A DNA stretch of 64,000 bases, taken from positions 13,078 to 77,077 of the IMG/VR virus record IMGVR_UViG_3300022200_000033; one strand, written 5' to 3'. Shown piece after piece: positions 6,101 to 59,299 of this stretch (position 1 is its first letter; each line of letters starts with the position of its first letter). Source of the DNA: a virus. Position numbers and translations under genes: made by a program. The notes under the pieces were generated by a model. The model saw nothing but the letters and a program-made list of their open reading frames with translations. It searched no databases and was not told the DNA's origin.

Positions 6101-7924
6101 ATCAGGTTCGACAAAGAAATATGGGATCGTTGTTTCTGGGTATCCAGCAACTCTTTTAAATGTGTAGTTTGAAAATCCTATGTAGTCAAGCAATACCGTT
6201 ATCGCCCAGCTTAAAGATACATCTGTCAGCAGGAGCTCTGGGGCTGGTCTTGACTCAAGAAGAAAAAACAAGTCTCTTATGGTTACGCTTATTGTTGCTG
6301 CTTCTCCAGTAACCTGTGGAAATGACTCGCTATACATTGTCTTTACTGGAATGAAGTAGTCTATTCCATCTACCTCTTTTGTGATGTCGTAGAATAAAAA
6401 CTTTATTGGCATGTCTAAATAGTTTGCTAGGATGCTTCCTCTGTAGTCCTCAAAGTTAAAGACATTGTTTTGATTAAAAGAAAAGTCTGTATCAAAAACT
6501 TCAATCTGTCCTGTTGATGCAGAAAGTCCACCTACAGGTATAGATCCATTTCCAAGGTCTGACATTGTTTTTGTTATTGAGAATGACAAAACGCTTTCAC
6601 TCATTTCAACCAAAAGTCTTGGAGAAAGTTCTATTAGGTCAAATGTACAACCACTTTTATTCATTGTTTCAATAACTAACCTCATACCACCTAACCATTC
6701 GAACTCTCTAAACACTGGGTTGTTATTTGCATCATAAAAGTAATCTGGATTTGCTGGCTGTGTCACAAAGTTACTATTATAGTTAATCAATTCATCTGAC
6801 ACTGCCCAGGAGTAGTCTGGAGTAAAAGACACCCATTCTTCATTTATAAAAATCCACATCGTACCTAAATCATGGTCTGACTCTTTAACTAGGTAGGTAT
6901 ATCCTTCTGGAGCAGTATCTGGAAGTAGGGTTGAGTTTGGGATGGTGTCAGCAAATATAAAAATATCTCTATACTCTAATGGAATCTGTAATCCATAAGA
7001 TATTTCAACGTGACCGTCAAAACCAATTATAGGAGTTCCGTCAGACCTTAAAGATACGTCATCAAAAGATATCATAGTTACCCAACTATCATCTTCATCT
7101 AGCTTTTCAATTCTCCATCGAACTGGTGTAGTCTTATTATTGTCACCAAATAGCGGATCTTGTATTGATGTGTTTCCATATCTTAAGGTTCCTAAATCGA
7201 CACCTCCTACGTTTGTCTGCATCTTAACAACAATCTTGTTTGCTGGAACCTGGTTTTCATAGACAACAAAAGGAACAGAGTCTTCGATAGAGTGATTGCC
7301 ATTTACCAAAAACGAAATCCCTCTTTCAACTTGACGCAATTCTGATGTAGCACTTTCCCCAGGTCTTGGACTTGGAACCCCATATTCTGTTCTATAAGAA
7401 GTCCAGTATTTAAATAAATCATCTTTGTGAGACATATAGTATCTTGGCCTGTTAACAATGTATCCTTGATTTACTTCTTGTAAATCTGTTACCTTGTTGA
7501 TTGGAGATGGATTGGTTATGTACTGCGCTGTTTCGTATGTTGAACCAATGTTTCCAAGGTACAGTGGTTTGTTTATTCCTGACCTTGGTCTATGAGGACT
7601 TATACAATCATTTAAAGAATAAAGAAGCTTCATCTTTTCTTTAGGAGAGATAAACAGTGTTGGTTGATCTTGATCATCAAAGCCACTTTGGATAGCAACG
7701 TCAGAATCTGTTGCTCCTGTATACCAGTTTCCAATGTCTAATTCATCATAGTTTACGGGAAGAAGGTAGTATTCAGATCCAGAATACGTTGGTCTATAAC
7801 GATAGTTTCCAAGGTTTTTAATGTTTCCTGGCTGATTCATATTCCATTCAGCATATACCGCTGACTCAACTTTAACTGTATCTGAAGTTTTCAGATGATT
7901 TTCAAGTTCTTCTGATTGAAACAT
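3140..7924 (-). CDS. Large minor tail/baseplate hub protein
   Basis: 1594 aa, second gene after the tape measure (Tal/hub position); C-terminal 'NLQLGDIVNINY' motif typical of hub proteins. Confidence 0.7.
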   Translation of the reverse strand: MFQSEELENHLKTSDTVKVESAVYAEWNMNQPGNIKNLGNYRYRPTYSGSEYYLLPVNYDELDIGNWYTGATDSDVAIQSGFDDQDQPTLFISPKEKMKLLYSLNDCISPHRPRSGINKPLYLGNIGSTYETAQYITNPSPINKVTDLQEVNQGYIVNRPRYYMSHKDDLFKYWTSYRTEYGVPSPRPGESATSELRQVERGISFLVNGNHSIEDSVPFVVYENQVPANKIVVKMQTNVGGVDLGTLRYGNTSIQDPLFGDNNKTTPVRWRIEKLDEDDSWVTMISFDDVSLRSDGTPIIGFDGHVEISYGLQIPLEYRDIFIFADTIPNSTLLPDTAPEGYTYLVKESDHDLGTMWIFINEEWVSFTPDYSWAVSDELINYNSNFVTQPANPDYFYDANNNPVFREFEWLGGMRLVIETMNKSGCTFDLIELSPRLLVEMSESVLSFSITKTMSDLGNGSIPVGGLSASTGQIEVFDTDFSFNQNNVFNFEDYRGSILANYLDMPIKFLFYDITKEVDGIDYFIPVKTMYSESFPQVTGEAATISVTIRDLFFLLESRPAPELLLTDVSLSWAITVLLDYIGFSNYTFKRVAGYPETTIPYFFVEPDQNVAEMLQKLAVASQSTMFFDEYNNLVIMSKEYLLPNSEDERVTDTTMYGQVEGDNLPNIINLSSQDKLVYNDGEINYTTRYIQRSIGSTATAQKLDQYKEYIYKPVLLWEVQGREATKTINQLGAQNSGYTLGAVPLNTNLTEEVPYSLNNTVYNNVIDVGENVYWIPSYSGYFYANGEVIKFDAVEYSVSGEIEPVWVTSNQEYQDYFSRLTFNGKMFPTGNVRIYTKPEYEIIDGITNIKNGEIIEHGRGQFGTPITAHSAGLSSDSYWSDNLYVRGCIMDASKYLFTTGSYIEYPTTLQQGTAGKIQTSPYIDADSFSESSTRNGIIKNFLADSYATESEVNYYKTTGPGTIQSSALILNGPKFTDALPASSFISYVYKDFIDQNGEAIPYKHFGTRMRIVGKVESGTDKSQTPIGGYPIFEGSSGLELYSSSSNVSQNAPDQQVRIYGGSGGIGIGVNKETNNGYFFEIVALTADNVGDYVSDNNAGVKVANILSSPSPSCVANEVTVYTERQFDFQVGESVLISGLVDANDPTNTRTPLNGEYAITSIFPDKKSFKYVITSPTPLTTTSSTGGVASQSIQEATNIANIYFYKIVSDGSGSAIPVRLWSGLGQINVDSGEFVGQNRLAGESSTTVYDMSAEYINIGSARRFFLYLNGKQISTVDDIDPLPEYNNMAVFTRGSSRCMFENVYALANNYSESTTFTVDSGISKVFGDDLVDASEALRKYAISGIIQKTYLSGISSAEPPKYRMYFEEFGTILREVAYFNVKYDRAYPALYARLMNTMNRVKGYSVSGFYAGSYGADFLIFNCTDFNLNLDDTSGNYLRISGIAFTQDTTYNLNVDDYYKSKSILSNSDLGKSSTISNPFRVLEEYNKIKNSRIKYGVHQFTPIDSPYIQTSDAAEDVFGWVIDKVSVPKKAVGVNTFGTTNLQLGDIVNINYKDAQGQGIDIISPETSRFVIYNMEYKKDASGLSTTIYLLEV

Positions 7925-31012: not shown

Positions 31013-31148
31013 ATAAACACCCTTTCTAAGTTTGATTTATGAGTATTGAGTATAGCACTTTTATATCTTTCAATGCAACATCATCTGTAACATTTTTTAC
31101 AAAATGTTGGTAATAAAGGATGTTTTTAAGTTTGTGATTATTCTTACA

Positions 31149-50428: not shown

Positions 50429-50837
50429 AATGTCATTATACTCTAAAGTTTAAAAATATTATGCAACCTATATAGCACATTACCTGGGTTAATGCGTAGT
50501 ATATGTCTCATTAATATGTTTTCTATATGTGTAAAAGTTTAAAAATTTTGTATTTTCAAAATTGACTAAAGTTTAATATTTTTTAGATGTGTACGATACG
50601 CAAATCTGACAAAACGGACATAACGGATTAGTGAGCACACTAGGAGAAATCCGTAGAAAATTGATCAAAAGTCGACTAAAGAATTTTATTTTAGCCATGT
50701 ATGCGACTATATCCGTTGTTATAGATATCCATATCTTCGGATACCGTTGCCTATACCGTCCTATTATCGGTCAATGTCAGACCCCTGTGTTAGTATGTAT
50801 ACATAAAGTTAAATAAACAAAAGAAAGAAGAAATAAA

Positions 50838-50963
50838 ATGTTAAACAGTTTCCAAAGAGAAGGTCAAGTCCTAGCACCATTGAACACTTGCATAGACGGT
50901 AACGGTCACGTTACTAGTGCTAGCAGAGTTTGTTTCAAGTGCAATGAAGATCTCAATAAGTGA
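50838..50963 (+). CDS. 41-aa Cys/His peptide (first cassette)
   Basis: MLNSFQREGQVLAPLNTCIDGNGH...CFKC; follows the motif promoter and an AGAAG RBS. Confidence 0.55.
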   Translation: MLNSFQREGQVLAPLNTCIDGNGHVTSASRVCFKCNEDLNK

Positions 50964-51074
50964 TCTAACTCACACAAAGACAATTCGGACATAACGGATA
51001 TTCAACTTCCCAAATGTCAGACCCCAATGTTATACTAAACATATAAAGATAAAGATACTAAAGAAAGTAATAAA

Positions 51075-51260
51075 ATGAACGTAATAACAAAAATCAAGTG
51101 CAATGGCTTCCTATGCCTCTCCTCTGCTACTCGCCATAATGCGATTGAGAATGTCTCTCGCGTATACCCTAACGGTAGTGTAGATATCATTCCAATGTGT
51201 GAGCGTTGCTCTACTTGTGCCCAAGATGTTTGGGAAGATGTAACGATAACCGTTATCTAA
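51075..51260 (+). CDS. Small Zn-finger-like protein
   Basis: C..C...CERC; own motif promoter. Confidence 0.65.
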   Translation: MNVITKIKCNGFLCLSSATRHNAIENVSRVYPNGSVDIIPMCERCSTCAQDVWEDVTITVI

Positions 51261-51333
51261 CTGCTATCTAACTACCCTCAAATAGGGTATCAAATGTCAG
51301 ACCCCTAGTGTAGTCTAGGACTATAAATAAATA

Positions 51334-51397
51334 GAGAGTAGAGCGTGAGCCTAGCAAATAATCCGAAAGGTGAGCCTAGCAAATAATCGTTCCTCTC
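51334..51397 (+). ncRNA. Candidate two-fold symmetric structured RNA
   Basis: Closing stem GAGAG-TA-GAGCG/CGTTC-CTCTC, two identical TGAGCCTAGCAAATAAT loops, CC-GAAA-GG cap. Confidence 0.6.
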
Positions 51398-51430
51398 ACC
51401 CCCCACAAACTAACTAATAAAGGAAATAAA

Positions 51431-51550
51431 ATGACTTACTTAATTGGAACATATCAGCCAGAGATGAACGGCTACCGTGGTGCAATTCCCGCCATGATCC
51501 ACTACAAGATCAAAGAAAATCATCACCGTTTGACAGATCCATTCATCTAA
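51431..51550 (+). CDS. 39-aa peptide
   Basis: AAGGA RBS; stop directly before the next motif. Confidence 0.55.
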   Translation: MTYLIGTYQPEMNGYRGAIPAMIHYKIKENHHRLTDPFI

Positions 51551-51606
51551 CAAATGTCAGACCCCCATGTTAATATAAACTTAATCAAACAAACAAAGGA
51601 AACAAA

Positions 51607-51768
51607 ATGCAATCACTACTAATAAAGACAGTACATGTAAAGACAGGTTTAGTACATGAGTTTGCCTATGAGTGCCATAACGAGGCTACACAAATGGCAA
51701 TCGTTAGCGGTACCTTGGAATCTTGCTCACGCACAGGTTGGGCTATATGCGAAATGCAGGTGGCATAA
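51607..51768 (+). CDS. 53-aa hypothetical protein
   Basis: AAGGA RBS after a motif promoter; TAATG-coupled to a short TM peptide. Confidence 0.6.
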   Translation: MQSLLIKTVHVKTGLVHEFAYECHNEATQMAIVSGTLESCSRTGWAICEMQVA

Positions 51769-51846
51769 TGTTAGATGCCGCGATATTTATTCTGGCAGGT
51801 GTAATTGTTGGCTATGTCATTAGACTAGCCCAAGAGATGAAAGAAG

Positions 51847-52062
51847 ATGCAAATGAAATTGACTAAGCGTGGTAACCGTGTTGTCTCTGTTGCATTTATT
51901 GCATTCATTCTATCTACCCTCGCGCTTGCGGGTAGGTTCGAAGCATTAGATCAATGCGCTACATTCCAAGCAGACAATAACTATTCTGATGCACTAGATG
52001 CAGGTTGCTCATTCGATGTATTGCCTAATGGCGAATATCCTTACACATGGGAGGTAAAGTAA
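51847..52062 (+). CDS. Small membrane protein
   Basis: 'KLTKRG' followed by a TM helix. Confidence 0.65.
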   Translation: MQMKLTKRGNRVVSVAFIAFILSTLALAGRFEALDQCATFQADNNYSDALDAGCSFDVLPNGEYPYTWEVK

Positions 52063-52226
52063 TGCAAATCAACACACCAACATTGCAAATTGTTTGGAAT
52101 GGATCACATACCGCTAACGTGTATAACTATTTAGATAATGAATTAGATGCATTTACTTTTGCTTTTGATCGCAAACCTAATGCAATTGATTTTGTTTCAG
52201 CTACCGCTCAATACTTGGAGGACTAA
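52062..52226 (+). CDS. 54-aa hypothetical protein
   Basis: GGAGGT RBS, TAATG coupling at both ends. Confidence 0.6.
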   Translation: MQINTPTLQIVWNGSHTANVYNYLDNELDAFTFAFDRKPNAIDFVSATAQYLED

Positions 52227-52477
52227 TGATAAATAATAAAAAAATAAAGATCAATCACATGATGGCAGATACTCTATCTATCTCTACAGGAGAGGGTGCA
52301 TATTGTGGAGAGGGATCTAGTGAAATTGCATTCTTCAAAAATAAAGATTGGCAAGTAATTCCAATTCCCGAATTCGCTACATACCATGATGGTAGTGATA
52401 GCGTTGCAGAGACAGCCGTCTATCCATATGTACCTAATGAAAAGATAGAAAAGTTTTTAGATAAATACCGCGCATGA
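52226..52477 (+). CDS. Hypothetical protein
   Basis: GGAGG RBS; 'SISTGEGAYC...EIAFF...VYPYVP'. Confidence 0.65.
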   Translation: MINNKKIKINHMMADTLSISTGEGAYCGEGSSEIAFFKNKDWQVIPIPEFATYHDGSDSVAETAVYPYVPNEKIEKFLDKYRA

Positions 52478-52662
52478 AAAGCGTTGGTATATAAGGGTTT
52501 TTGATATAGCTAAAATACGTTGGTAATAAAGGAGTTTTGGTGCCTGCTTTCTTGTTAATTGTTTTCGTTCTTTCTGTATGTGCTTGGGCGGCTAGTGTCT
52601 TGTAAAACCGTTGGTACTAAAGGGATTTTTAGACTTGACATTTGAGAAAAATCCCGGCCCCC

Positions 52663-52798
52663 TGTGGATAACTTGTGGATAACCTTAAGATAACCCTTAA
52701 GAACCTGTGGAAAACCTGTGGAAACCTATTAACCTAATGTTCATCTTTAACACGGCGTGTCGATTTGACAAGCTTTTTTGTGCATAACTTGTGGATAA
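52663..52798 (-). promoter_or_regulatory. Cluster of six DnaA boxes in three pairs
   Basis: TGTGGATAA at 52663, 52674, 52790; variants TGTGGAAAA 52706, TGTGGAAAC 52717, TGTGCATAA 52779 (reverse of TTATCCACA). Confidence 0.85.
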
Positions 52799-52906
52799 CT
52801 TCGTTATCATTCTGTTATAAAACAAAAACGGACATATAGGATATTCGATAGGTCAAATGTCAGACCCTCGTGATAGGATCTAGTTACTAGATCGAAAGGA
52901 TAAAAA

Positions 52907-53053
52907 ATGTTTATTTACCTAGTTACCCTTACCAATGGCTCTACCGTGCGTGTCGAAACCGCAGGTGACCCTACCGTACACCCCGCGTTCTTTGAGCGCG
53001 TAGCCAATGTGGAAACCATTGGTGAATCTGGCAAATTACTCTCCCTAGTGTAA
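52907..53053 (+). CDS. 48-aa cassette protein
   Basis: GAAAGGA RBS; stop TAA is the start of the next motif. Confidence 0.65.
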   Translation: MFIYLVTLTNGSTVRVETAGDPTVHPAFFERVANVETIGESGKLLSLV

Positions 53054-53105
53054 TGTCAGACCCCCATGATAAACTAAACTTAGAAACATAGAAAAGAGAA
53101 ATAAA

Positions 53106-53264
53106 ATGAAAACATTCCTACACACAAATGACAATTCCCCTATGCCTACCTGCTCAGGTTGCTATAACCGACATGAGCCAGAAATGTGTCCACACGGTGA
53201 CATTGACAGTCTGCTAGAAAATTGGGAATGCACTCACGGGCATTTCAATTGCACTAAGCACTAA
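53106..53264 (+). CDS. 52-aa Cys/His-rich cassette protein
   Basis: CSGC..H....C.H...C.H...C; stop overlaps the next motif. Confidence 0.6.
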   Translation: MKTFLHTNDNSPMPTCSGCYNRHEPEMCPHGDIDSLLENWECTHGHFNCTKH

Positions 53265-53314
53265 ATGTCAGACCCCTGTGATAGTCTTTACTTATTCAAT
53301 CGAAAGGAAACAAA

Positions 53315-53527
53315 ATGTACAATCTTCAGAATCTCCCTAAGGATACCGCTGACTACCTTAACGAGTATCACTTAATTGCTGCCCGTGAAATCTCTCGCTT
53401 GCAGGCTCTCCCTGAAAGTGTAAAGCAAGCAAATGCAAACTCTCACCTCATTGGAAATGTAGACGGCGTTAGTCGTTGCGTTGATTGCGAAATTGGTGTT
53501 TGGAATGCATGGAAGCGTCAATGCTAA
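53315..53527 (+). CDS. 70-aa cassette protein with H..CVDC
   Basis: GAAAGGA RBS; stop overlaps the next motif. Confidence 0.7.
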   Translation: MYNLQNLPKDTADYLNEYHLIAAREISRLQALPESVKQANANSHLIGNVDGVSRCVDCEIGVWNAWKRQC

Positions 53528-53573
53528 TGTCAGTCCCCCATGCTAAGATCAAAATCTAACGAAAGGTAAAACT

Positions 53574-53738
53574 ATGAATCATCAAGCAATCATCACCCAC
53601 GTTTATTGCGGTGTGGAAAGCACTAGCGAAGTGGAAGACTTAGACCTAACCATGTTCTATGCAAAGTTCACGGGAACTATAAAAGGCATAACTAATGCGG
53701 GTTCACACATAACCAAAGTGGAAACGGTGGCAGTCTAA
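53574..53738 (+). CDS. 54-aa cassette protein
   Basis: GAAAGG RBS; stop overlaps the next motif. Confidence 0.62.
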   Translation: MNHQAIITHVYCGVESTSEVEDLDLTMFYAKFTGTIKGITNAGSHITKVETVAV

Positions 53739-53785
53739 TGTCATACCCCCATGGTAATGTGATCCCCATAAAGAAAGGAAATCAA

Positions 53786-54690
53786 ATGTCGGAACTCAAT
53801 AAGGCTTGGCGAGATATCTACTACATGCTAGAAGATAACGCTTTCGACTATGTTGGAAAGCCATTCTATAACGACAAGGAAGGAACCGTACAACTTTGGA
53901 ACGGTTCACAATTCATAACATATGCGGAGGTTCCATTCTAATGACAAAAGTTTCTATGCCCCGCGCAGATTGGGATACCGTCATCATGATATTGACAGAT
54001 GCACGCGATAGCGGAAAGTTCGCATACCTTGATCACATAACAGACACCATTGACCATGCACTAGATACCCAGGAGAACTAATGAAACAATTATTTATTTA
54101 TCATCAAGGAACATCAACACTCATTCCATTGAATGATGAGGTGTATCTAGTTGCCGCCGATATTGTTGGCGATGAAATGATCAACGACATGTCTGAAGGT
54201 TGCAACGTGTATCCAATGGAACACAAAGGATACCGCTTAGACAATTACAACATGACCAATTTATTTTTTGGAGGTGCAGAGTGACAAACTTTATCTGTGA
54301 ACATTGCGAATCAAATGAAAATCCTCAATCTGAAATGTGGGAGGAACTGTGTGTGTATTGTAATGAAACAATGCTAATCGCAAACCTAGAAATGGTGCAA
54401 CGACAAATCAAACTAATAGAAATGGATTAGCATGAAAACAAATTGGGCGCTAACAGAAGAAAAAAATATCAGCTTCGAACATTGCAACCGTCCTGCGTAT
54501 TGGGAAAATGAAAATGTTTATTGCTCAAAGTGTGGAGAGGAATTGCCAGATGTTATCTAATAAAGATTTGACACAAAAAGAGTTTGACGTTGCGCTAGAT
54601 CTAAAAATTGCAATGAATTGTTTGATGCAAGAAAACACGTTGGGAACAAAGGAGTATTTGCAGTCTGCAATTAAAAAGTTGCATACCTGA
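53786..54690 (+). CDS. Run of six coupled small ORFs (53786-53941, 53941-54081, 54081-54284, 54281-54430, 54432-54560, 54550-54690); two carry CxxC motifs
   Basis: TAATG/GTGA coupling and GGAG RBSs. Confidence 0.6.
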
Positions 54691-54820
54691 AAAACTGTTG
54701 GTAATAAAGGGTTTTTTGGGGCCCGGCCCATTTTCTTCCACTTGTCAAGTCTTTAAGATGTGTTTAAGATCACACCGAAAAACCCTTGACTTTTTATATA
54801 AAATAAGATAAAATGACATC

Positions 54821-54961
54821 ATGATCAAGACACGAAAAAAGACTAGCGAAGAAATTAGATTCTGGCAAGAATTGCGTAGATCTAACGCTGCCCAGAGTCA
54901 TCGCAATAAGAAAAAATATACTAGAAAAAATAAGCACAAGTCCTTGACTTTCTCTGAATAA
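54821..54961 (+). CDS. 46-aa basic ArfA-like peptide, not in the ORF track
   Basis: MIKTRKKTSEEIRFWQELRRSNAAQSHRNKKKYTRKNKHKSLTFSE; leaderless after TTGACT-N17-TAAAAT. Confidence 0.7.
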   Translation: MIKTRKKTSEEIRFWQELRRSNAAQSHRNKKKYTRKNKHKSLTFSE

Positions 54962-54978
54962 TAAGATAGGTTAATCTC

Positions 54979-55098
54979 ATGATATTAGAACTTGACCAAG
55001 ATGAATTCGATCAATTTGTTTCTATGCTACTACGCGATCCTGTAAATAAGCCAAAGCTTGCTAATCGTATGGCTACCCCCGCACCCTTCACCGACTAA
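54979..55098 (+). CDS. 39-aa peptide resembling the C-terminus of TacA/AtaR (DUF1778) antitoxins, not in the ORF track
   Basis: MILELDQDEFDQFVSMLLRDPVNKPKLANRMATPAPFTD; leaderless after TTGACT-N17-TAGGTT. Confidence 0.65.
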   Translation: MILELDQDEFDQFVSMLLRDPVNKPKLANRMATPAPFTD

Positions 55099-55127
55099 AT
55101 GTCAGACCCCCATGTTAGGATAACACC

Positions 55128-55685
55128 ATGAATAAATTAGCAGATAGCCCCATTGCCCTTGCCGAAGTTTCGGAACACTCCTACTACCAATGCATATTGC
55201 AGGCTACCCTCGCCCAAGTTGAGCAGGCTAGTGTCTGGTACTTTGAGGCACAAGAAGTTGCGGAAGATGTTGCTGAGATCATGGGCGTGAGTTTGGAAGT
55301 GGGTGCTAGTGTTGTGTCTGCATTCTCTCCCCGCGAACGTTGGGCTAGCAATGTTGCCAAGGCGTTTGCATTCGCACACGGTAAGCCCGTCAAGGGTTTG
55401 TCTAATAATCTCAATATGGCTAACAATAGTTTGACAATGGGATTCGAAGCACTTAATGGTCAGAAGACTAATGCATTCGCTCGCGCTATCGCTGGCGACT
55501 CTGACGCGGTAGTGATTGACGTTTGGATGATTCGTGCCGCAGGACTTGACGCTAGCAAAGGTGTAAATAAAACACAATACAACACGCTAGTTGATTCCGT
55601 TCGCAAAGTTGCAAAAGAGTTTGGACTAACACCGCGCACCGCGCAGGCATTGATCTGGATTGTAAAGAGAGGTAGTGCAGAGTGA
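55128..55685 (+). CDS. Conserved phage protein with HhH-glycosylase-like motifs (DUF7178-like)
   Basis: 'WY','SAFSPR..W..N','KT.AF..AI.GD...VVIDVW','QA.IW'; leaderless start. Confidence 0.6.
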   Translation: MNKLADSPIALAEVSEHSYYQCILQATLAQVEQASVWYFEAQEVAEDVAEIMGVSLEVGASVVSAFSPRERWASNVAKAFAFAHGKPVKGLSNNLNMANNSLTMGFEALNGQKTNAFARAIAGDSDAVVIDVWMIRAAGLDASKGVNKTQYNTLVDSVRKVAKEFGLTPRTAQALIWIVKRGSAE

Positions 55686-55915
55686 GTGAAATAATTATTG
55701 ACCCAAAAATATTTAGTGATGAACTTTCAAAAGTTTATGCTAGTCGTAATTCTGAAATTTCGGTCACCCTTCCAAAAATTGCGTGGGAGTCATTGCTAGA
55801 AATTTTGCAGAGTCATAACGCACCGCATGGTGATTTTGACATAACAACAATAATAAATTTGCATAATGAAATATCTGATCAGATGGGAAAACAAATAAAT
55901 GATAAAACTTTTTAA
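55682..55915 (+). CDS. Hypothetical protein (followed by a 25-aa TM peptide, 55899-55976)
   Basis: GTGA coupling, GAGG RBS. Confidence 0.55.
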   Translation: MSEIIIDPKIFSDELSKVYASRNSEISVTLPKIAWESLLEILQSHNAPHGDFDITTIINLHNEISDQMGKQINDKTF

Positions 55916-56117
55916 TTTTTTTGCAGGAATTGTTTTGATTGGGCTTGCGATATTTTTTGCGTTCAAGTATTGGTGAGTCAAAAACTGTTGGTACTAAAGG
56001 GTTTTAGCGGCCCGGCACGTTTTATTAGCTTTGTCAACCTTTTAAGAATCAATTAAGAATATGGCAGAAATCTGCATGAATTTGACAAGTGTCAGTCCTC
56101 TATGCTAAGGTAACCAC

Positions 56118-56300
56118 ATGATTACAGAAGAGATGGAAATAGAGTCATTAGAAGAAGGCGATCAAATTCTTTTTGGGGAAGATGATGTATATAAGATATT
56201 GTCTATAGATGAAGACATAATGAAGCTAGTAGATGAAAGTGGAGATGTGTTTCAAACTAATTACATTCCCACCCAAAAATTTCTTTTAATAGTTGAGTAA
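56118..56300 (+). CDS. Small acidic SH3-like protein
   Basis: 'LEEGDQI....VYKI'; leaderless start. Confidence 0.6.
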   Translation: MITEEMEIESLEEGDQILFGEDDVYKILSIDEDIMKLVDESGDVFQTNYIPTQKFLLIVE

Positions 56301-56370
56301 AACCCTTGACAAATGTCAGACCCCTGTGGTAGGATAAATCCATAACAACAACAAGTAAGGGTGGTTACAA

Positions 56371-56865
56371 ATGGGACTAGATCAGTATCTATACGCAAGA
56401 AAGTATATCTCTGCTAACAACTACAGTAGGGATGAAGAGGGTAACTTTAGCGAAACGCCTAATCCAGAGTTTTCCAATATCATGGAGCAAAGTGGTCTAC
56501 CGCTAGATATTAACAAGTATACTTTTTCAGGATCAGCAAATGTGGCAATTCAGGTTGGATATTGGCGCAAGGCTAATGCCATTCATGGTTGGTTTGTTGA
56601 TGGGTTGGCTAATGGTGTAGATGAGTGTCAAGAAATCTATGTACCCCGCGAGAAATTGTCGGAGTTGCGCGATCTCTGCAAGTCTGCTCTCAAGAAACCT
56701 GCCATGGCTGGCGAGATTCTTCCACCTACCGCAGGATTCTTCTTTGGATCTAATGAAGTAGATGAATGGTATATGGACGACCTAAAGACAACAGTCGAAA
56801 TGATTGACTATGTTCTTGCCAATACCTCTGATGACTATGATTTTTTCTATCAAGCCTCTTGGTGA
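56371..56865 (+). CDS. Conserved phage protein
   Basis: 'MGLDQYL','YWRKANAIHGWF','GFFFG','YQASW'. Confidence 0.75.
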   Translation: MGLDQYLYARKYISANNYSRDEEGNFSETPNPEFSNIMEQSGLPLDINKYTFSGSANVAIQVGYWRKANAIHGWFVDGLANGVDECQEIYVPREKLSELRDLCKSALKKPAMAGEILPPTAGFFFGSNEVDEWYMDDLKTTVEMIDYVLANTSDDYDFFYQASW

Positions 56866-56994
56866 GGCTCCAACAATCGCATCCAAGTGCCTCCAAAAGT
56901 CGCACATAACAATTTCATAACGGTAGGGCAAATGACTTGACTCTATGCCCCAACTATGATAGGGTACTACTAACAACAACGAAGGGTTATAAAA

Positions 56995-57387
56995 ATGGGT
57001 GATCGTGCAAACTTTGGTTTTCGTCAGGAAGATGGATCTATTATCTTTCTGTATGGACATTGGGCTGGCGAGGGTATGATGAATACTCTGGCAGAAGCAA
57101 TTGCTAAAGCTCGACCACGTTGGACTGACAGTTCATATGCCACAAGAATTTGTATCTCACAAATCATTGGTGATGAATGGAAAGAAGAAACAGGCTGGGG
57201 AATCTCTACTTCGTTTGGAGATAATGAGCATTCTGTTCCCATTGTTGATTGGGAATCTCAAGCAGTTTCTCTCTATCAGGCAGATTGGAATACTGTTAAT
57301 ACAGACTTTCTCAATCATACCCCCAAGTTTGCAATGGGGCTGGAGGCGTTTATAAATAAATTTGCAAAGTACTTGACAACTGTATAG
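56995..57387 (+). CDS. Conserved phage protein
   Basis: 'MGDRA','LYGHWAG','RWTD.SYATRI'; SigA promoter at 56937. Confidence 0.75.
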   Translation: MGDRANFGFRQEDGSIIFLYGHWAGEGMMNTLAEAIAKARPRWTDSSYATRICISQIIGDEWKEETGWGISTSFGDNEHSVPIVDWESQAVSLYQADWNTVNTDFLNHTPKFAMGLEAFINKFAKYLTTV

Positions 57388-57435
57388 AAGTAGTGTAAGG
57401 TAATCCATATAACAACAACAACGAAAGGCAATAAC

Positions 57436-57612
57436 ATGGCAAAGAATCTAACATCCCGTACCCCCAAGAATGAAATCTGGGTTCGTACAATCGGTCAGTT
57501 TGCTGGCAAGAAGGTTGCAAAGAAAGTACACCGCTCAAAGGGTGGTCAATTTTTGGGTGGTACAAATCAAACCGCTGAAAAGTTGGTTGGTCGCGTGGGT
57601 GCATTTAGTTAA
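57436..57612 (+). CDS. 58-aa basic protein
   Basis: GAAAGG RBS, TTGACA-N17-TAAGGT promoter; 'HRSKGGQF'. Confidence 0.65.
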   Translation: MAKNLTSRTPKNEIWVRTIGQFAGKKVAKKVHRSKGGQFLGGTNQTAEKLVGRVGAFS

Positions 57613-57629
57613 TCTAACTTAGGTTAGAA

Positions 57630-57656
57630 ATCCTGAGCATGATCTCAAACTGCTCA
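57630..57656 (+). ncRNA. Mini H-type pseudoknot element, copy 1
   Basis: ATC-C-TGAGCA-T-GAT-CTCAAAC-TGCTCA. Confidence 0.55.
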
Positions 57657-57690
57657 ACTCAAATAAATCAAATCAAACAAAGGAAATAAA

Positions 57691-57828
57691 ATGGGTACAT
57701 TGACAATCGGTTCAGAGTTCGTTTCTCAGAAGTCAGCACACAAGGGTGTCATTGCTGAAATTGTAGAGAATGTAACTGGTTCAATGCGGGTACGTTTTGA
57801 AGATGGTCGTTGGACTACCGTTTCGTAA
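57691..57828 (+). CDS. 45-aa SH3-like protein
   Basis: AAGGA RBS; 'G.I.EIV.......RVRFEDGRWTTV'. Confidence 0.65.
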   Translation: MGTLTIGSEFVSQKSAHKGVIAEIVENVTGSMRVRFEDGRWTTVS

Positions 57829-58011
57829 TCTGATATAATCAAACACACAATTCAATAGTGGCTTGGGATATGCGACCCGTAGTTAATTCTACATCGACTC
57901 GCTTCCCCACTTGTAGTCTAGTGTACCAACATCATAGAGATATGACAAAAAATGTTTTGTCTCGCTACAAGTTAATCGTGAAGGGTTAAGCCTAGATACC
58001 TTCACACTCTT

Positions 58012-58084
58012 GGTTCTGTAGAGCAGCGGAGTGCTCGCCACCCTGTCACGGTGGAGGTCGTGGGTTCGAATCCCATCAGAATCG
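58012..58084 (+). tRNA. tRNA-Asp(GTC)
   Basis: Acceptor GGTTCTG/CAGAATC, anticodon arm CCACC-CTGTCAC-GGTGG, T-loop GTTCGAATC; no encoded CCA. Confidence 0.95.
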
Positions 58085-58086
58085 CT

Positions 58087-58140
58087 GTCCCCCTAGGTTG
58101 AGCATACCCACCCACCTTGCTCCCTGGGGGGACTCTTTTT
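58087..58140 (+). terminator. Long hairpin with C-rich loop plus U-tract
   Basis: GTCCCCCTAGG..GAGCA-TACCCACCCACCT-TGCTC-CCTGGGGGGAC-TCTTTTT. Confidence 0.7.
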
Positions 58141-58303
58141 GTAGGGAAAATCCCGGCACGCGAGCTCTGATTTGTCAAGCTTTTATGATGTGATTAAGGA
58201 CACACTAGAAATCTGGGAGTTTTTATAAATAACTATTGACAAATGTCAGTCACATAGTATATAGTTTGACTATCAAATAAACACACTATAGATAGGAAAT
58301 CAC

Positions 58304-59299
58304 ATGGCTCACATGTTAGAACAATACGGCGATATGGCTTCTTTTGCTTCCCTGCGCCAACCTGCATGGCACGGTTTGGGAACCGTCCTTGAGGAAGAGG
58401 TTACCACATCAGAAATGCTAAAGGCTGCACATCTTGATAATTGGAATGTGCGTTGCGAAGAAATTGCGCTTCCAGGTCGTTCTACCACCAACTACTTTGC
58501 TACCGTTCGCACTAATCCTTTCGATGGTGAGAATGATGTGCTAGGTGTTGTGGGAGAACGCTACCGCACTTTGCAGAATGAGGAATTGTTTGCATTTGGC
58601 GATAACATTCTTGACGGTGCGCGTTGGGAAACTGCTGGCTCTATCAAAGATGGAAAAGTTGTTTTTGGTTCCCTCGCACTTGAGCGCGAATCTATCATTG
58701 ACCCCAATGGTGTAAGCGATAAAGTTAATTCATATCTTTTGGTTCACACATCACATGATGGATCACTTGCTATTCAAGCAAGCATCACACCTGTGCGCGT
58801 TGTCTGCCAGAATACATTGAACATGGCTGTTGGTGCGCGTGGTAAGTCTGCAAAGCAATCATTCCGCATTCGTCACACCCAAACTGTTGAGGGTAAAATC
58901 ATGGCTGCGCGTGAGGCACTTGGTCTTGCTAATAAGTACATGGACGAATTCGATAAGCAAGCGCAGGACTTGTTTGCGCGTGAGATTGACGCTAACAAGT
59001 TCTTTGAGATTGTTAAGGCTGCATACCCTGAGCCAGATGCAGATGTAAAAGGTTCTGCTACTAAGTGGACAAACAAAGTTGATACTCTGTTTGATATTTG
59101 GAATGGCCCAACAAATGTTGGTATTGCTAAAACTGCGTGGGGTGCTTACAACTCACTAACCGAACGCCTTGACTGGTACCGTAATCCTCGCGGTGGTAAT
59201 GCAGAGTCTGTGCTTGCTGCTGCTAGTGGATTCGATGCTGCTACCAATGCAGAAAAGAATCGCTTGCTTTCTGTTGTCAAGGAATTGACTACCGTCTAA
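58304..59299 (+). CDS. DUF932 / TIGR03299 phage-plasmid protein
   Basis: 'PAWHGLG','LGVVGERY..LQN','WETAGS','SHDGS','TPVRVVCQNTL','IRHT','TAWGAYN'. Confidence 0.9.
   Translation: MAHMLEQYGDMASFASLRQPAWHGLGTVLEEEVTTSEMLKAAHLDNWNVRCEEIALPGRSTTNYFATVRTNPFDGENDVLGVVGERYRTLQNEELFAFGDNILDGARWETAGSIKDGKVVFGSLALERESIIDPNGVSDKVNSYLLVHTSHDGSLAIQASITPVRVVCQNTLNMAVGARGKSAKQSFRIRHTQTVEGKIMAAREALGLANKYMDEFDKQAQDLFAREIDANKFFEIVKAAYPEPDADVKGSATKWTNKVDTLFDIWNGPTNVGIAKTAWGAYNSLTERLDWYRNPRGGNAESVLAAASGFDAATNAEKNRLLSVVKELTTV

Follow-up and report, generated by a model that had tools for sequence, protein, structure and literature searches.

The promoters activated by PafBC, also called RecA-NDp promoters, are found across Actinobacteria (PMC8223512). 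Their consensus is tGTCgg(N10)tA(N3)T, in which a SigA -10 element is present and a -35 element is not; the helix-turn-helix of PafB contacts positions -23 to -28, the '-26 element', and PafBC inserts between domain 4 of SigA and the DNA, which was named 'sigma adaptation' (PMC8635444). PafBC is activated when single-stranded DNA (ssDNA) binds to its WYL domains (PMC11804915). Here, we describe an array of 13 repeats, AATGTCAGACCCC, in a 64,000-nucleotide stretch of viral DNA, referred to as the window (bases 13078-77077 of the 77-kb IMG/VR contig IMGVR_UViG_3300022200_000033, which has a CheckV completeness of 71%). Judging from their sequence and spacing, the repeats are likely to be promoters of the PafBC (RecA-NDp) class in a lytic actinophage, read by the PafBC and the SigA RNA polymerase of the host.

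Other known systems of repeated or hybrid sites share some of the properties of this array. Integrons consist of IntI, attI, attC and promoterless cassettes located behind Pc. Cluster A mycobacteriophages, which are temperate phages with a repressor and an integrase, carry stoperators, 13-bp asymmetric repressor sites that are oriented with transcription. In T4-type phages, PeSL elements join a promoter to a terminator stem-loop (Arbiol et al. 2010, PMC2839356), and the likeness of PafBC sigma adaptation to the 'sigma appropriation' by AsiA/MotA of T4 has already been drawn (PMC8635444).

A co-oriented array of promoters

The window carries late and structural genes on the minus strand up to ~50.3 kb, including those for the portal, protease, major head protein, ribonucleotide reductase and very large tail proteins, followed by a block of small genes on the plus strand from ~50.5 kb. 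All 13 copies of the motif are located in this block and have the same orientation. Searching for it as a 14-mer with up to two mismatches gave 11 plus-strand matches between 50772 and 56324, compared to 0.53 expected, and a count of 11 was reached in 0 of 100 shuffles. The two remaining copies, at 56088 and 58242, are degenerate and each is preceded by TTGACA. Only two further near-matches (two mismatches each) were present in the rest of the contig, both on the opposite strand within late genes.

Both the alignment of the modules and the table of their coordinates showed that exactly 10 nt separate TGTCAG from a downstream TAnnnT in each of the 13 copies, with the -10 box lying exactly 5 nt past the end of the motif. 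The TGTC core is invariant. The motif itself spans -30 to -18 and replaces the -35 element; TTGACA with an 18-bp spacer was found in three copies only (56082, 56306 and 58236). An extended -10 (TGn) is carried by 11 copies and is absent at 51293 and 58242. Together with its leader, the promoter forms a module that is near-identical over ~25 nt and similar over ~60 nt.

The units are tightly packed. At 53051, 53262, 53525, 53736 and 55096, the TAA of the preceding open reading frame (ORF) overlaps the 5' A-run of the motif, leaving no spacer, and at 51552 the spacer is 1 nt. Two units are leaderless, with ATGs at 55128 and 56118, each 6 nt past the -10 box, while the others have A-rich leaders of 18-35 nt with an AAAGGA-type ribosome-binding site (RBS), apart from one leader of 108 nt. 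The first ORF encodes 39-70 aa in 10 of the 13 units. No Pfam family was matched by the micro-proteins of the array, no terminator-like hairpin was found at any cassette junction, and the sole match in an Rfam search was a tRNA.

Most of these features had been proposed in an earlier reading made from the sequence of the window alone (the sequence-only reading), namely 13 co-oriented copies, a TAnnnT at fixed spacing usually with TGn, three copies with TTGACA, a motif that occupies a promoter spacer mostly without a -35, five units abutting the previous stop codon, and an A-rich leader with an RBS or a leaderless ATG in front of a small ORF. The counts given above agree with all of them. The same reading had described the units as one-gene cassettes, but several units are operons, starting at 51553 (~5 ORFs), 53737 (~6 ORFs) and 55098 (three ORFs), and ordinary SigA promoters are mixed in from 54.8 kb on. 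The micro-genes, for which it had also proposed putative roles in host takeover or anti-defence, matched no Pfam family.

The motif followed by TGnTA was detected in more than 120 IMG/VR contigs, many of them 95-116 kb long. Among the matches listed in IMG/VR, 120 viral loci with 386 distinct motif instances were used as the set of related loci. Five relatives carry 24 (genome G001, the highest copy number seen), 10, 8, 4 and 1 copies, which are clustered and co-oriented, and two of these genomes are closed by terminal repeats. Across the 386 instances, TGTC is conserved in 99% and TAnnnT is found at the fixed distance in 94% (89% of the instances that were not used to fetch the loci), with TG at -15/-14 in 67-82%. 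The information content of the -35 zone is ~0 upstream of the A-run. A peak of A is located 7 nt past the -10 box, at the expected start site, and is followed by an A-rich leader. The repeats are promoters.

When the 8-kb region was compared by megablast with 50,697 phage records, a tRNA was the sole match. The closest cultured portal proteins are those of Streptomyces BE-cluster phages, at 45% identity. The nearest cultured phages by portal, Blueeyedbeauty, Yaboi and Wakanda, do not exceed the control in TGTCRG-N10-TAnnnT sites (0-1), and as these cultured Streptomyces relatives lack the array, there is no cultured model for it.

Correspondence with host PafBC promoters

In all 13 window sites, TGTCAG occupies positions -28 to -23, GTC is kept and 10 nt separate the element from a SigA TAnnnT, as in the TGTC[AG]G sites of the PafBC class (PMC8635444, PMC11804915, PMC8223512), which share the invariant GTC and the asymmetry of the site. 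The lack of a -35 consensus, another trait of the class, also applies here, with TTGACA in just three window sites and almost no information at that position in the relatives. The sequence-only reading had seen a phage-specific promoter class. This can no longer be maintained, as the sequence, the spacing and the missing -35 match those of the host class (PMC8635444) and, over 15 positions, the recA boxes of metagenome-assembled genomes (MAGs) described below. What differs is that the sites are viral and are arrayed in one orientation, 13 here and up to 24 in relatives, that they precede tiny genes without assigned function instead of repair genes, and that they mostly add TGn, with three also carrying a -35; their PafBC dependence is predicted.

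The exact 24-nt pattern was scanned in one genome per species, covering 185,579 species, and gave 30 matches, about half of which were actinobacterial. Several were located on low-G+C contigs with small downstream ORFs in unrelated MAGs, and these were taken to be mis-binned phage contigs. Three matches in Rothia are upstream of a helicase-nuclease. In Myxococcales MAGs, the matches precede uvrA-like and ssb-like genes, named from N-terminal sequence only, and an imuA/RecA-like gene confirmed by Pfam.

A candidate host counterpart was found in two Acidimicrobiales MAGs of one family, G008 and G091, which contain 14 and 11 exact TGTCAGACCCC-N5-TAnnnT sites, respectively, while the reversed-pattern control gave 0. 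The boxes precede recA in both genomes. The other genes behind them, which are often leaderless, include rmuC, a UvrD-like helicase, ~eight DNA methylases and DUF5131. At -32 to -29, positions that were outside the search pattern, the frequency of A is 80-96% in host sites and 47-82% in phage sites. The phage box is identical over ~15 positions to the boxes before recA in these pafBC-bearing MAGs, and two adjacent WYL genes in tandem in G008 match PafB and PafC of PDB entries 7p5x and 6sj9 over their full length. In Nanopelagicales, recA has TGTC[AG]G-N10-TAnnnT beside a LexA box in three of four genomes checked, and the ACCCC extension is absent.

Neither a WYL protein nor a sigma70 region 2 was found in the contig or in four relatives, each at least 92% complete, and no tyrosine integrase (PF00589) was found in the same genomes. 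All four near-complete relatives encode a WhiB protein. Taken together with the similarity of the portal to that of Streptomyces phages, this points to a lytic actinophage which would depend on the PafBC of its host, and the exact extended box indicates the lineage of G008 and G091 as a host candidate.

We infer PafBC binding, the timing of expression and the identity of the host from these observations. The phage probably borrows the host's PafBC switch, which has the recA promoter among those it drives. Each site would present a '-26 element', TGTCAG at -28 to -23 between the A-run and ACCCC, followed by the 10-nt spacer and a SigA -10, mostly with TGn and mostly without a -35. The host PafB-PafC heterodimer, activated once its WYL domains bind ssDNA, would wedge between domain 4 of SigA and the DNA, allowing the housekeeping RNA polymerase to start at the array promoters. 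The phage, which has no factor of this kind, would in this way place its hypervariable block of micro-genes, expressed early or delayed-early, under the control of the host's ssDNA alarm. Infection is itself likely to trip this alarm, be it by the entry of DNA, by nucleases, by breakdown of the host DNA or by replication, and the added TGn would probably supply a basal, PafBC-independent activity.

Several observations weigh against dependence on PafBC or against the candidate host. Most phage sites carry the extended TGn (67-91%; 11 of the 13 in the window and at least 67% in relatives), compared to 2 of the 25 sites in G008 and G091. It could make the promoters independent of PafBC, leaving the role of the motif open, and this contrast between phage and host is the main reason why PafBC dependence was not rated higher. 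Exact sites with the ACCCC extension are rare in Nanopelagicales and in other Acidimicrobiales (41 genomes sampled per order). The G+C content of the phage is ~39%, compared to 44-65% (mostly above 50%) in MAG loci that carry the exact extended box; however, BE-cluster phages also lie ~20 G+C points below their Streptomyces hosts. Comparisons of tRNAs and methylases were uninformative on the host, as the phage tRNA-Asp is only ~81% identical to the Nanopelagicales tRNA over 54 nt, with a poorer match to Acidimicrobiales, and a motif-driven methylase of G008 has no homologue in the phages.

A broader possibility, which we put forward only tentatively and consider doubtful, is that a widespread clade of freshwater actinophages of ~100-116 kb, without an adaptor of its own, wires a hyperplastic block of early micro-genes, possibly for counter-defence, to PafBC, so that ssDNA produced by infection or defence would turn them on by sigma adaptation, and that the same promoter-plus-leader module acts as a portable joint by which genes, and even the promoter class, are swapped between phages.

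To our knowledge, PafBC and sigma adaptation are known solely from the response of bacteria to DNA damage. Searches of the literature on PafBC/RecA-NDp with phage and on actinophage promoters yielded no account of PafBC promoters carried by a phage; the promoter class is known, and its use in viral arrays is not described in the searchable literature. The present analysis further adds a regulon, to which recA belongs, that carries the exact extended box in Acidimicrobiales MAGs with pafBC, the difference between phage and host sites in the extended -10, the swap of promoter class at an orthologous gene, and the quantitative tests which weaken the reading of the repeat as a recombination joint (the last two are described below). 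If PafBC does read the array, this would be the first lytic phage found to time its genes by a host WYL-type activator, rather than by its own adaptor, such as MotA/AsiA of T4, or a LexA-type repressor, and phage expression would be tied directly to the ssDNA signal arising from infection and from anti-phage nucleases. The several hundred natural promoter variants in IMG/VR, some with an extended -10 or a -35, provide material for dissecting the -26 element, and the phage promoters could serve as a sequence handle for host prediction in a very common group of lake phages.

The host loci also gave observations in their own right. The PafBC-type regulon of G008 (L157-L170) and G091 (L182-L192) includes ~eight orphan-looking DNA methyltransferases (N6_N4_Mtase and Eco57I-like) and DUF5131, each with its own exact box; a predicted wiring of DNA methylation to a DNA-damage activator is unusual. 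The exact 13-mer with TGnTAnnnT was found in MAGs of Myxococcales and other deltaproteobacteria (L124, L126, L132, L137, L144, L145 and L150). Among these loci, L132 and L144 have uvrA-like and ssb-like N-termini, respectively, L145 has an imuA/RecA-like gene (Pfam RecA), L124 has an IS200-type transposase and L137 has an N-terminus identical to it. This suggests that the same box serves a PafBC-like regulon for DNA damage outside Actinobacteria. In Candidatus Planktophila (G006:C3:14386-25537 and G007:C1:32160-35610; L122, L128 and L171-L176), three to four almost identical modules, each made up of the box, TGn, TATTCT and a leader, are present within a few kb, in front of genes for a 198-aa protein, to which no function was assigned, and histone-deacetylase-family genes. 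These may represent a small PafBC-controlled island in acI bacteria.

Alternative readings of the repeats

T4 middle promoters, with a MotA box and a sigma70 -10, resemble the array promoters in being hybrids, with an upstream box instead of a -35 and an adaptor that redirects the housekeeping sigma factor. However, the T4 adaptors are encoded by the phage and their box is at -30, whereas here the box, centred near -26, is the host's own, and no candidate adaptor was found (no search was made for homologues of MotA or AsiA). The motif could still bind a phage-encoded factor, either an activator similar to MotA/AsiA or a repressor of the early block sitting in the spacer, and merely resemble a PafBC site. 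A protein bound within the promoter spacer could block RNA polymerase, and TGn, present in most copies, could make the promoters self-sufficient, the motif then being used for shut-off. Most phage genes are without known function, and the WhiB-like protein of the four near-complete relatives belongs to a family that binds domain 4 of SigA. We know of no WhiB protein that reads such a sequence, and a private factor would not explain why the box is identical over ~15 positions to those of recA and rmuC in bacteria with pafBC. With no WYL or sigma gene in the five genomes, four of which are at least 92% complete, we regard a phage factor as unlikely.

The stoperators of cluster A phages are also 13-bp asymmetric sites, present in many copies in one orientation with very short intergenic gaps in an actinophage. 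Unlike the repeats described here, they are not tied to a -10 at fixed spacing. As all sites of the window are coupled to a -10 and no integrase was found in the five genomes searched, the array was not assigned to this group.

The sequence-only reading had also proposed that the motif doubles as a recombination joint in an integron-like array. There is a likeness to integrons in the one-way array of small, variable and mostly single-gene units. However, PF00589 is absent from the contig and the four relatives, the motif is asymmetric with no attC-like folded inverted repeat, and each unit has its own promoter, with a -10 and a start site; membership of the integrons was therefore rejected. 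The likeness to T4-type PeSLs holds for the repeated early-type promoter modules, the hyperplastic region of small non-essential genes and some gains or losses that are bounded by repeats. It fails for the terminator, as the stem-loop is absent at all cassette junctions, five of which have no spacer. Furthermore, the promoters match an activator-dependent host class and not strong sigma70 promoters, and no excess of breaks was detectable at junctions with the motif over those without it.

Gene order varies among relatives. Compared to L029, the closest relative (70-85% nucleotide identity), cassettes have been gained, lost and moved. The third cassette, which is bounded here exactly by two motif copies, does not lie between the same neighbours in L029 and is found there at another place, again flanked by motifs, while the 53052 cassette has been replaced, motif to motif, and the 52907 gene has been duplicated. 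The promoter class has been swapped at the first ORF, whose L029 ortholog is preceded not by the motif but by a SigA promoter, TTGACT-17-TAGAGT; the two sequences become homologous again exactly at the extended -10.

These events, and the fact that most cassette ORFs are singletons among the 120 related loci, would fit a repeat that mainly acts as a PeSL- or integron-like joint for shuffling single-gene cassettes, with a secondary role as promoter. Repeated promoters are capable of shuffling, as the PeSLs show (PMC2839356), and the starts of homology blocks peak at motif positions -4 to 0 (~930 of 16,919, compared to 50-150 per neighbouring 10-nt bin). Yet a motif at the junction made no difference to whether the next gene after a shared gene was conserved (26% of pairs with a motif and 25% without), and of 540 indel or replacement boundaries, 9-11% were at a motif, compared to 5% for random placement, with both ends at a motif in 1% (gene calls in both tests were crude, all plus-strand ORFs of at least 30 aa). 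Because motifs abut stop codons, a break between two genes would coincide with a motif in any case. The near-perfect -10 at fixed spacing and the host-type box are explained by transcription and not by recombination. This makes a dedicated joint improbable, and the motif-bounded gains, losses and moves look like a by-product of having repeats at gene starts, with no dedicated recombination system. In the absence of a stem-loop and an integrase, and with little excess in the two tests, motif-mediated exchange was kept as a plausible side effect, not a function, and the claim of a recombination joint is unproven.

It is very improbable that the array is mainly a decoy, in which many high-affinity sites titrate PafBC and RNA polymerase away from host DNA-damage and defence genes, since, despite the high copy number (13 here and up to 24 in G001), phage sites nearer to the consensus than the Nanopelagicales recA boxes, and the many DNA methylases in the G008/G091 regulon, every copy is coupled to a -10, a start site, an RBS leader or leaderless ATG and an ORF, none of which a pure decoy needs, and 89-94% of the copies in relatives keep the -10.

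Features of the array region

The coordinates of the promoters and the genes they precede are listed in Table 1. For promoters 1 to 12, the predicted transcription starts are at ~50803, 51043, 51323, 51583, 52886, 53082, 53294, 53556, 53767, 55128, 56118 and 56342, respectively.

Table 1. Promoters and selected ORFs of the array, in window coordinates
Feature	Coordinates	Strand	Remarks
Promoter 1	50773-50796	+	13-mer 50773-50785, TGn, -10 TAGTAT 50791-50796, no -35; predicted start ~50803
41-aa Cys-containing ORF behind promoter 1	50838-50963	+	L029 ortholog has a SigA -35/-10 promoter instead
Promoter 2	51013-51036	+	13-mer, TGn, -10 TATACT
61-aa Cys-rich ORF	51075-51260	+	No Pfam family
Promoter 3	51293-51316	+	13-mer, no TGn, -10 TAGTCT; followed by 108-nt leader
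39-aa ORF	51431-51550	+	Stop 1 nt ahead of the A-run (51552) leading to the promoter 4 13-mer
Promoter 4	51553-51576	+	13-mer, TGn, -10 TAATAT; operon of ~5 small ORFs (51607-52477)
Promoter 5	52856-52879	+	13-mer with 1 mismatch, TGn, -10 TAGGAT; first after the DnaA-box cluster
48-aa ORF	52907-53053	+	TAA overlaps the A-run ahead of the promoter 6 13-mer; two paralogs in L029
Promoter 6	53052-53075	+	13-mer, TGn, -10 TAAACT
52-aa Cys/His-rich ORF	53106-53264	+	No counterpart in the 120 related loci; TAA overlaps promoter 7 motif start
Promoter 7	53264-53287	+	13-mer, TGn, -10 TAGTCT
70-aa ORF	53315-53527	+	TAA overlaps promoter 8 motif start
Promoter 8	53526-53549	+	13-mer with 1 mismatch, TGn, -10 TAAGAT
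54-aa ORF	53574-53738	+	TAA overlaps promoter 9 motif start
Promoter 9	53737-53760	+	13-mer with 1 mismatch, TGn, -10 TAATGT; ~6 small ORFs (53786-54690), two zinc-ribbon-like
Ordinary SigA promoter, not motif-type	54786-54814	+	TTGACT, 17 nt, TAAAAT; leaderless 46-aa basic ORF 54821-54961
Second ordinary SigA promoter, not motif-type	TTGACT 54944, TAGGTT 54967	+	Leaderless 39-aa ORF 54979-55098
Promoter 10	55098-55121	+	13-mer, TGn, -10 TAGGAT; leaderless start 55128
185-aa DUF7178 protein	55128-55685	+	Followed by coupled 77-aa and 25-aa ORFs
Promoter 11, hybrid	56082-56111	+	TTGACA, degenerate motif, TGn, TAAGGT; leaderless 60-aa ORF 56118-56300
Promoter 12, hybrid	56306-56335	+	TTGACA, 18-bp spacer with perfect 13-mer, TGn, TAGGAT; 164-aa ORF 56371-56865
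Promoter 13	58236-58265	+	TTGACA, degenerate motif (TGTCAG kept, C-run lost), -10 TATAGT; 331-aa DUF932 gene 58304-59299

The 108-nt leader after promoter 3 (51323-51430) contains a 19-bp direct repeat and ranks among the most strongly conserved parts of the array (79-86% in L029, L042, L024 and L104), although the ORF downstream of it is not conserved. Its predicted fold was no better than that of shuffled sequences (z = -0.97) and it had no Rfam match. The 39-aa ORF at 54979-55098 weakly resembled TacA-type antitoxins in their C-terminal part, with a score below the threshold (Pfam PF08681, E = 0.004, 17.5 bits compared to a cut-off of 21). Another ORF of the block, of 45 aa at 57691-57828, represents the commonest family in the related loci, with 84 copies in 61 loci and often several per genome; 32 of the 84 copies are directly behind a motif promoter, making this a multi-copy core micro-gene.

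Between two operons of the array, at 52663-52798, the minus strand carries three perfect DnaA boxes TTATCCACA and two with one mismatch within 136 bp. These are the only perfect boxes of the window. Conservation in L029 covers part of this stretch, and the cluster may be a host-DnaA-dependent origin or a site that titrates DnaA. A module found at operon ends, GTTGGTAnTAAAGG with A-run and T-run arms, occurs at 52483, 52519, 52610, 54697 and 55987, and also at 31106 (10 matches compared to 1.6 expected). The module is not a canonical terminator; downstream of its copies in the early block lie a CCCGGCC motif and TTGTCAAG/TTAAGAT repeats. In L029, a copy of tRNA-Asp that is 95% identical to window positions 58012-58085 is located on the reverse strand (6327-6403), within the promoter array just before a motif copy, and a tRNA-Asp is also present in L029 at the conserved position.

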